In this document: positions 3,489 to 4,504 of the stretch, piece by piece
Position numbering within the stretch: position 1 is the stretch's first letter
Layout: each line of letters starts with the position of its first letter
Origin: a virus
Lineage: Duplodnaviria; Heunggongvirae; Uroviricota; Caudoviricetes
IMG/VR virus record: IMGVR_UViG_2877285697_000004
Span: 1 to 17,853 of that record
Length of the DNA: 17,853 nucleotides
Strand: one strand, 5' to 3'
Notes under the pieces: generated by a model
Databases searched by the model: none
Seen by the model: the letters and a program-made list of their open reading frames with translations, nothing else
Told to the model about the DNA's origin: nothing
Program-made: the position numbers and the translations under genes

Positions 3489-4319
3489 TTACTTAACCTG
3501 AATAAATGGTGTGTTGGCACCGCTGGTCATGTACTGCGGCAGTGTGCCGTTCCATTTATTGATGGCTTCCAGCTCCATAACACCGGGGTTCTGGCGCAGA
3601 GCTTCACCGCGTAAACGAATTGCATCGGCTTCGGACTGGGCTTTTGTGCGAATCGCATCAGCCTGTCCGGCAGCTTCTGCACGCAGCATGTTGGCTTCTG
3701 CTTCGCGTTGTTTAACTTCCTGCTCGCGTTGCAGTGTTTTCTGGTTTGCCGTGACTTTGGCGTTAATGCTGTCGATAACGGTTGGTGGGTACTCTGGCTT
3801 ACCCACATATGAGAGGCTCATTACCTGAATACCGATGGGTGTCATTTCTTCCTAGATGTCTTTTAGAGCGGCATCCAGTAATTCAGATTTACCGCCGTCA
3901 ATAAATTTGTCGGTGGTCATTTTGCTGGCCAGCCGATTGAGTGCGTCGGCGATCTTCTGGCGCAGGTCGGTGTTGGTAATGTCATCCACGCCTTTGCGGT
4001 AAGTCTGAAACACCGTGGTAACTTTGGATGGATCAACTTTGTAGGCCACGCCGATGTGATAGCCGATGGTTGTGCCGTCACTCATCTGGAAACTGAACGG
4101 TTCATCGTAGGTCTTCATTTGCTTGAAGGTCGGGAAAATGTAAACTTCAGTATTCCAGCCAGTCCAGTAGCGACCAACACCGACCACTTCACCGACACCT
4201 TTGTCGTCGCCCAGTTTGTTGACTTTGATACCCACATTACCTGGTTCAACGCGATCGCAACCTACAAGTCCGAAGACAGCCAGACTGACCGCGAAAACAA
4301 GCGCAATTGTTTTTTTCAT
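3489..4319 (-). pseudogene. SPFH / band-7 (stomatin-prohibitin-like) lipoprotein interrupted by an in-frame TAG at 3852-3854
   Basis: Upstream ORF (3852-4319, 155 aa) has a lipoprotein signal (MKKTIALVFAVSLAVFGLVGC) and the start of an SPFH domain. Downstream ORF (3489-3845, 118 aa) is in the same frame and continues the domain into an Ala/Glu/Arg/Gln-rich coiled-coil tail typical of HflK/HflC/QmcA-like proteins. Only TAG-GAA-GAA separates the two (..KDI * EE MTPIG..). Confidence 0.6.
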
Positions 4320-4504
4320 TTTTCCCTCCCGGGGAAAGAAAGACCCTTATAAATGGCATAAATGCAGGGCGGGGTCAGACACGCCAGAGCAAAGCCAGAA
4401 ATCACTGCTACCGTATCCTTCATTGATATGAGGGCCGGAACGATTAATCCGTAAATACATGCGATAATTGCCAGTGATATAACTATTCTGAAATAAATGT
4501 TCAT
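4316..4504 (-). CDS. Small hydrophobic membrane protein, 62 aa, two predicted TM segments
   Basis: AGGAGG RBS before ATG; stop overlaps the SPFH lipoprotein start (ATGA at 4316-4319), implying translational coupling. Hydrophobic composition (IVISLAIIACIYGLIVPALI... VISGFALACLTPPCIYAIY). Confidence 0.5.
   Translation of the reverse strand: MNIYFRIVISLAIIACIYGLIVPALISMKDTVAVISGFALACLTPPCIYAIYKGLSFPGREK

Follow-up and report, generated by a model that had tools for sequence, protein, structure and literature searches.

Escherichia coli HflK and HflC, two SPFH (Band 7) paralogues with transmembrane helices, form a hetero-oligomeric cage around FtsH and carry an SPFH fold followed by a long coiled-coil helix; their SPFH domain lies on the periplasmic side of the inner membrane (PMC12048511). 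In SPFH-NfeD operons, of which QmcA-YbbJ is an example (PDB 8Z5G), an SPFH gene lies beside a small membrane-protein gene with which it is co-translated, and the partner carries an NfeD domain. Among phages, the strictly virulent N4 encodes gp19, with two hydrophobic helices, and gp20, a 278-amino acid (aa) SPFH protein with a signal peptide and a lipobox-like Cys, from overlapping genes, and phiP27 encodes the SPFH protein L05. Here we describe a related pair in the IMG/VR virus record IMGVR_UViG_2877285697_000004 (Caudoviricetes; positions 1–17,853, the whole stretch of 17,853 nucleotides (nt) analyzed, hereafter the window), in which a small membrane-protein gene overlaps an SPFH lipoprotein gene that is interrupted by one in-frame amber codon. 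Taken as a whole, the locus is very probably explained as a Q156* pseudogene of a conserved module in a decaying Shigella lambdoid prophage. The features of the pair are as follows.

4316–4504, minus strand: small membrane-protein gene, intact, 62 aa (open reading frame (ORF) list and PHROG 1130 match)
3489–4319, minus strand: SPFH/Band 7 lipoprotein gene of 276 codons, a pseudogene with an internal amber codon (translation, Band_7 and PHROG 200 matches, intact 276-aa orthologues)
4257–4319, minus strand: lipoprotein signal peptide and lipobox (MKKTIALVFAVSLAVFGLVG-C21), with Asp at +2 (direct sequence reading)
3852–3854, minus strand: amber TAG, codon 156, CAG (Gln) in intact relatives (alignment with CFSAN029787 and N61)
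3633–3635, minus strand: second apparently derived change, TCC (Ser229) against GCC (Ala) in the other sequences compared (alignments)
3855–4319, minus strand: N-terminal fragment, a truncated lipoprotein of 155 aa (Band_7 positions 2–124 only)
3489–3845, minus strand: C-terminal fragment ORF, 118 aa, without a signal peptide (Band_7 positions 132–176; contains the invariant KWNGxLP)

The N terminus of the SPFH ORF, MKKTIALVFAVSLAVFGLVGC|DR, has the layout expected of a predicted lipoprotein (MKK-TIALVFAVSLAVFG-LVGC21), with a basic n-region, a hydrophobic core and an LVGC lipobox ending at Cys21, followed by Asp at +2. This region is kept as LVGCDR or LTGCDR in 80/80 related viral loci, and the protein matches PHROG 200 (‘lipoprotein’) with an E value of 9.7e-114. 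The amber codon reads ‘cta’ on the plus strand at 3852–3854, and the frame remains open beyond it (GAA GAA ATG, then on to the TAA at 3489–3491). Taken alone, the N-terminal half matches positions 2–124 of the Pfam family Band_7 (PF01145) with 62.8 bits and the C-terminal half positions 132–176 with 26.4 bits, the gathering cut-off being 23.6 bits, while the protein with Gln restored at the stop gives a single match to positions 2–176 of 176 with 108.8 bits. That the halves match consecutive parts of one model indicates that the window gene is, as a preliminary description of this DNA had proposed, one SPFH domain cut by one stop and not two unrelated ORFs; the coordinates given there, the 62-aa two-helix ORF, the ATGA overlap, the TAG and the preserved frame proved exact to the base. 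The question of chance does not arise, since a specific point difference separates the window gene from its intact orthologues.

A megablast search with the 1016-bp region against 5426 complete E. coli genomes gave matches in 571, with at least 80% of the query covered in 217. The six best matches (99.7% identity) are from enteroinvasive E. coli (EIEC), e.g. CFSAN029787, for which RefSeq lists an ‘SPFH domain-containing protein’ of 276 aa, intact and with the same 62-aa gene ahead of it. Codon 156, which the preliminary description had singled out for comparison with orthologous prophages, is CAG in CFSAN029787 and N61 by alignment, in phiP27, and in all 80 related IMG/VR loci, where the gene encodes 275–276 aa; all loci from the IMG/VR scan are close relatives, with identities of 91% or more, and so the scan tests the amber position well and pairing in distant phages not. 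The difference is a C-to-T change on the coding strand, i.e. G-to-A at plus-strand position 3854, and in this lineage a single such transition has turned Gln156 CAG into the amber TAG, so that normal decoding gives no full-length protein. The SPFH proteins of phiP27 (L05) and of E. coli/EIEC prophages at yecE are orthologues with 95–99% identity, which share with the window the position relative to int-xis, ORF6N and a clamp-like gene and have the same 62-aa ORF upstream with an ATGA overlap, but which, unlike the window copy, are intact with CAG at codon 156. The label ‘putative serine protease’ attached to phiP27 L05 is an old annotation that we set aside, as Pfam gives Band_7 alone.

The window and CFSAN029787 SPFH genes differ at three positions, none of them synonymous (Q156*, A229S and G17E). 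At most two of the three, Q156* and A229S, are derived in the window lineage (A229S as judged from the few sequences compared); G17E looks derived in the EIEC allele, since Gly is also found in P0001, an intact, 99%-identical representative from Shigella boydii that stands for a cluster of 1366 member sequences in the protein search. With the nearest intact allele only three substitutions away, the earlier suggestion of a freshly inactivated gene is borne out. Pairwise ratios of nonsynonymous to synonymous substitution (dN/dS) of 0.04–0.07 among the intact orthologues from N61, phiP27, RCS47 and CFSAN029787 point to strong purifying selection on the intact gene in phages. Gene calls on six contigs give precisely this truncated product of 155 aa; among them are the complete chromosome CP026827.1, Logan assemblies of several runs (one Logan contig occurs in five samples) and GCA_018229125.1. 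CP026827.1 is 100% identical to the window over the 12.3 kb compared. That chromosome is labeled Shigella dysenteriae, yet groups with S. boydii (PMC10501659). These comparisons indicate that the TAG is a lineage-specific nonsense mutation and that the gene is an ordinary recent pseudogene, not a recoding signal.

The preliminary description had offered, as the alternative to inactivation, full-length expression by amber suppression. A functional amber codon, read upon UAG suppression by a host or phage suppressor transfer RNA (tRNA) or by programmed read-through so that expression is conditional, would fit with the frame being kept across the stop and with the 118 downstream codons that are still open, and a Gln-inserting suppressor would restore the ancestral residue exactly. 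However, a very recent mutation would likewise leave the downstream frame open. All orthologues examined have CAG, so that conservation of the stop is lacking; only a few contigs, all of one lineage, carry the allele; no tRNA gene is present in the window; and an insertion sequence (IS) together with a deletion separates the gene from the promoter region of its operon (see below). Because the SPFH gene is both mutated and cut from the operon promoter, suppression-dependent expression is unsupported, and we consider a functional amber codon highly improbable.

Some points count against treating the gene as simply inactivated in a defined lineage. The TAG-bearing assemblies may repeat a few isolates, which leaves the size of the lineage uncertain; the absence of tRNA genes applies to the 17.9-kb window, so that an amber suppressor may lie elsewhere in the host genome; and low-level UAG read-through, or reinitiation at the ATG two codons downstream, may occur.

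In an AlphaFold model of the intact orthologue P0001 (mean predicted local distance difference test score (pLDDT) 76), strands occupy residues 20–95, helices 97–162, a further strand 164–176 and a long helix 179–243, although the model was built on a shallow alignment of 22 sequences at 75–91% identity. The top Foldseek matches in the PDB are erlin1/2, HflK/C, prohibitin, stomatin, flotillin, QmcA and vault protein (E values 1e-13 to 1e-6, or 1e-13 to 1e-8 without the vault protein), cage- or ring-forming proteins according to the titles of the entries. The model and these matches thus display the α/β SPFH fold and the long coiled-coil helix, which is the part that builds the ring in solved SPFH assemblies. 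An uninterrupted reading frame, as a functional member of the family has, is lacking in the window copy owing to the TAG at codon 156, which falls within the predicted helix 136–162 of the SPFH domain. Translation up to this codon would yield a lipoprotein stub of 155 aa without the last SPFH strand, the coiled-coil helix of ~65 residues and the invariant C-terminal KWNGxLP motif. The start ATG of the 118-aa ORF lies two codons past the TAG with AGGA ahead of it, and a reinitiated 118-aa piece could be made; this would stay in the cytoplasm while the N-terminal stub would be exported. As the piece lacks a signal peptide, complementation between the halves is not expected.

A K-W-x-G-x-x-P motif is present near the C terminus, at residues 255–261 of the window protein (window about 3537–3557). 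It is invariant across the phage SPFH proteins aligned, which are those of E. coli prophages, N4, Vequintavirinae, Burkholderia and Pseudomonas phages, Ounavirinae, and the Staphylococcus Kayvirus ISP. AlphaFold confidence is low at this motif.

The same ATG and AGGA, and the fact that gene callers report both halves as ORFs, might be taken to mean that two proteins are naturally made here, a lipoprotein from the N-terminal part and, from a start of its own, a coiled-coil protein from the C-terminal part. However, the gene is a single ORF in 80/80 loci, phiP27, N4 and RCS47, with no orthologue split at this boundary; the break lies inside a helix of the SPFH domain; and, the C-terminal piece having no export signal, the halves would end in different compartments. 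A natural split is therefore very unlikely, and the possibility, raised in the preliminary description, that orthologues are two genes or that the halves belong to unrelated families did not hold. A sequencing or assembly error in an intact gene, as might be suspected from a single-base difference from 99.7%-identical relatives, has scarcely any likelihood given the exact 155-aa product on six contigs of different sources (CP026827.1, Logan and GCA_018229125.1) and the identity of the window to CP026827.1 over 12.3 kb.

The pseudogene and its partner lie at one end of a co-oriented gene run comprising int, xis, a DUF4222 gene, a clamp-like 189-aa gene, an ORF6N gene, the SPFH gene and the small gene. 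The main features of the surrounding prophage are listed here.

1–1314, co-oriented with the module: int (ORFs and profile matches)
1370–1606, co-oriented with the module: xis (ORFs and profile matches)
2130–2699, minus strand: clamp-like 189-aa gene (RefSeq ‘beta clamp domain-containing protein’ in N61)
2696–3445, minus strand: ORF6N-domain gene, directly downstream of the SPFH gene (ORFs and profile matches)
4733–5996, minus strand: IS3-family element of 1264 bp with ORFs of 100 and 272 aa (ORFs, BLAST boundaries and terminal repeats)
10071–11363: DDE_Tnp_1 transposase element of 1.29 kb that splits gene J (J = 9200–13983) (ORFs and profile match)
16729–17853, minus strand: ipaH-type gene with an NEL E3 ubiquitin-ligase domain, running off the window (ipaHd annotation in EIEC relatives)

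The module sits inside the leftward early operon, at its distal end, of a lambdoid prophage in a Shigella chromosome. The preliminary description had placed the pair in an accessory position next to int-xis; the location inside the early operon speaks against a mere lysogenic-conversion gene. Between 3300 and 4900 neither strand has a site resembling a sigma-70 promoter, and the coding strand is free of terminators. In CFSAN029787 the left prophage arm adjoins yecE and the right arm (ipaH, DinI-like) adjoins yecD, and by this comparison the prophage was probably inserted between yecE and yecD. The ORF6N gene and the 189-aa gene overlap by 4 nt and form a second coupled pair; the 189-aa protein has no Pfam match.

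Homology to the intact prophages of CFSAN029787 and N61 ends, in BLAST comparisons, at 4732, upstream of the small gene, where the IS3-family element (4733–5996) begins. The element, which in size and ORFs resembles IS600, has no target-site duplication and its flanks are unmatched; on its other side it abuts the last 284 codons of a truncated tape-measure gene (Tape_meas_lam_C, ORF 5971–6825). It links a truncated early-left gene (4503–4732) to the tape-measure remainder (5997–6825). The region from the module to the middle of the tape-measure gene, in which genes for immunity, replication, lysis and the head would be expected, is deleted in the window. The element and the adjacent deletion thereby sever the module from all upstream early genes and from the operon promoter region. 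In EIEC CFSAN029787 the same IS is found at another site, directly ahead of the ATG of the small gene (4736–5999 in locus L001), and the two prophage arms are about 830 kb apart.

Further signs of decay lie to the right. The element in the tail-tip gene J is bordered by an 11-bp direct duplication (GGGGAAACGTC), and a 714-aa ORF (9200–11344) reads through in frame from the J N terminus into the transposase. The Lom gene (14051–14650) is intact in the window, next to the ipaH-type gene, and frameshifted in EIEC CFSAN029787; the ipaH-type gene, with which the prophage remnant ends on the right, represents phage cargo in the form of a type III effector. The amber mutation is one item in this general decay. 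Shigella prophage and chromosomal pseudogenes have in common with the window a nonsense mutation in an accessory gene, an IS deletion, IS insertion in neighboring genes, and ipaH at the prophage end, and the window is a typical example of such IS and point-mutation pseudogenes.

The 62-aa protein, which is identical in EIEC CFSAN029787, has hydrophobic segments at about residues 1–29 and 32–48, connected by a short conserved turn (VPALISMKDT), and matches PHROG 1130 (‘membrane protein’; category ‘moron, auxiliary metabolic gene and host takeover’) with an E value of 1.9e-23. No Pfam family was matched at E values up to 1, and hence no NfeD domain. The TGA of its gene (4316–4318) and the ATG of the SPFH gene (4317–4319) share the sequence ATGA, with a Shine-Dalgarno sequence GGAGGG upstream of the latter ATG. 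The 62-aa gene and the SPFH gene are a translationally coupled module, and the adjacent, co-oriented window genes match PHROG 1130 and PHROG 200, respectively. The pairing claimed in the preliminary description is upheld elsewhere: a two-helix ORF overlaps the SPFH start in 79/80 related viral loci, the overlap being 4 nt in the lambdoid type and 20 nt in the P1-like type, and the same PHROG families are adjacent or overlapping in N4, RCS47, phiP27 and EC152. Pairing in distant phages is based on eight hand-checked phage loci. The small partner in individual phages is as follows.

phiP27: the same 62-aa ORF, unannotated, with an ATGA overlap with the SPFH gene
N4: gp19, 68 aa, two helices, with an 8-nt overlap with gp20
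EC152 (Enterobacter phage, Vequintavirinae): two-helix ORF, one gene further upstream of the SPFH gene
RCS47 (P1-like): two-helix ORF overlapping the SPFH start by 20 nt
Burkholderia phiE125: gp44, with an ATGA overlap with the SPFH gene
Pseudomonas phage Rembedalsseter: two-helix ORF nearby, upstream of the SPFH gene

In Salmonella phage ST-3 no two-helix partner was found within about 200 nt upstream of the SPFH gene, and Staphylococcus phage ISP has another kind of partner, with one helix. PHROG 1130 is matched by the small proteins of N4, EC152 and RCS47 with E values of 1e-16 to 1e-26. What is conserved in the small protein is the turn that joins the two helices (VPxLxSxxDT), in which the Pro is invariant. 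These observations show that the pairing of the two families is real and widespread across unrelated phage lineages. Basic residues at both ends of the small protein imply that the turn should face the periplasm, as the SPFH domain should.

N4 gp19-gp20 has the same two families in the same order, in overlapping genes. Restored at codon 156, the window protein is 61.5% identical to gp20. A direct BLASTP comparison of the window small protein with gp19 is not significant (E value 0.37); their homology follows from strong matches of both to PHROG 1130 (gp19, E value 1.4e-20), along with position, size and the Pro-x-L-x-S turn. In contrast to the window, N4 is strictly virulent, its genes overlap by 8 nt instead of 4, gp20 has Tyr instead of Asp at +2, and both genes are intact. 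The SPFH-NfeD operons resemble the window in the co-translation of an SPFH gene with a small membrane-protein gene beside it, but the window small protein is without the NfeD domain of their partner. The SPFH domain of QmcA is cytoplasmic, whereas that of the window type is predicted to be exported.

In RCS47 (region 1202–3431 of locus L014) the neighbors of the module are upl/plp on one side and the tRNA-Met/dnaB-type helicase genes on the other; tRNA genes flank it both upstream (Asn and Thr) and downstream (Met). In phage P1 itself, tciABC occupies the corresponding position. A cluster of eight sequences (P0002, 347 aa), from some P1-like phage-plasmids, has the small protein fused to the SPFH lipoprotein; the fusion may be a frameshift artefact, as a 1-nt indel or sequencing error at the 20-nt overlap seen in RCS47 (2284–3328 of locus L014) could yield it.

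Intact, the SPFH lipoprotein would form an oligomeric ring or cage that faces the periplasm and is tethered by its lipid anchor, and the small hairpin protein, through its conserved turn in the periplasm, would be a partner or client of this ring. Expression would come from the early operon in lytic growth. Since the pair has no promoter of its own and lies among the early or middle genes of virulent phages, a lytic role is favored, and a role during lytic growth is more likely than one in lysogenic conversion. The module would then condition or protect the envelope, whether by excluding superinfecting phages, by setting the time of lysis or by controlling a membrane protease. We place low confidence in this functional model as a whole. 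It is possible, and we propose it tentatively, that the module is a phage envelope device of temperate and virulent phages alike, in which a lipid-anchored periplasmic SPFH ring or cage with the KWxGxxP motif acts with a dedicated two-helix inner-membrane partner. Its users may be lambdoid, P1-like and N4-like phages and Vequintavirinae, while phages of Pseudomonas, Burkholderia and Staphylococcus may have related forms, and its role may be, e.g., superinfection exclusion, lysis timing or the shielding of the membrane from abortive-infection effectors of the host.

Several points weigh on the other side of this proposal. Asp at +2 predicts inner-membrane retention in E. coli, but the residue is Tyr in N4 gp20, and the membrane location is thus uncertain. 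Among the 5027 models of PADLOC-DB 2.0 the small protein had no match and the SPFH protein gave noise alone (LmuB, E value 0.58). In the literature we found no functional study of phage SPFH proteins or of N4 gp19/gp20, only remarks at the level of annotation: a 2026 paper calls the role of SPFH lipoproteins in phages unclear (PMC13239085), and another speculates on a role in lysogeny while noting that lytic phages carry the gene too (PMC8540360).

Rather less likely than the envelope device is that the intact module serves as an anti-phage defense or superinfection exclusion system of the prophage, expressed in the lysogen. The proteins would lie in the envelope, and their genes are in the early-left region, the usual place of exclusion genes in lambdoid phages; the PHROG category of the small protein and the place of the RCS47 SPFH gene between upl/plp and the tRNA-Met/helicase genes are in keeping with such a role. 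However, neither protein is recognized by the PADLOC models, the module has no promoter-like site or terminator of its own, and the pair occurs in the strictly virulent N4 and in Vequintavirinae among early or middle genes. The role in phage exclusion that the preliminary description had mentioned as speculation remains speculation.

Still more doubtful is a role in which the module mimics or modulates HflK/C on behalf of the phage and so changes proteolysis by FtsH and, through it, the lysis-lysogeny decision or membrane-protein turnover. In a phmmer search against solved structures HflK was the sole family matched, weakly (E values 9e-4 to 2e-3, residues 116–241), HflK/C are among the top fold matches, and the SPFH domain, judged from the signal peptide and lipobox, would face the periplasm as it does in HflK/C (PMC12048511). 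However, identity in the fold alignment with HflK/C is about 17%, and whereas HflK and HflC are SPFH paralogues that both begin with a transmembrane helix, the window locus encodes one SPFH protein with a lipobox anchor and a 62-aa neighbor that is not an SPFH protein. Furthermore, the module is also found in virulent phages, which take no lysogeny decision.

The window copy should be annotated as a pseudogene, and not as two genes or a recoding site. The window itself matters little, as it adds a further pseudogene made by point mutation to those in Shigella prophage remnants riddled with IS elements; the module, although catalogued, is functionally uncharacterized. The intact pair of PHROG 1130 and PHROG 200 proteins is a modest lead, for which N4 gp19-gp20 or the EIEC and phiP27 alleles offer a tractable entry point to the use that a virus makes of a periplasmic SPFH cage.

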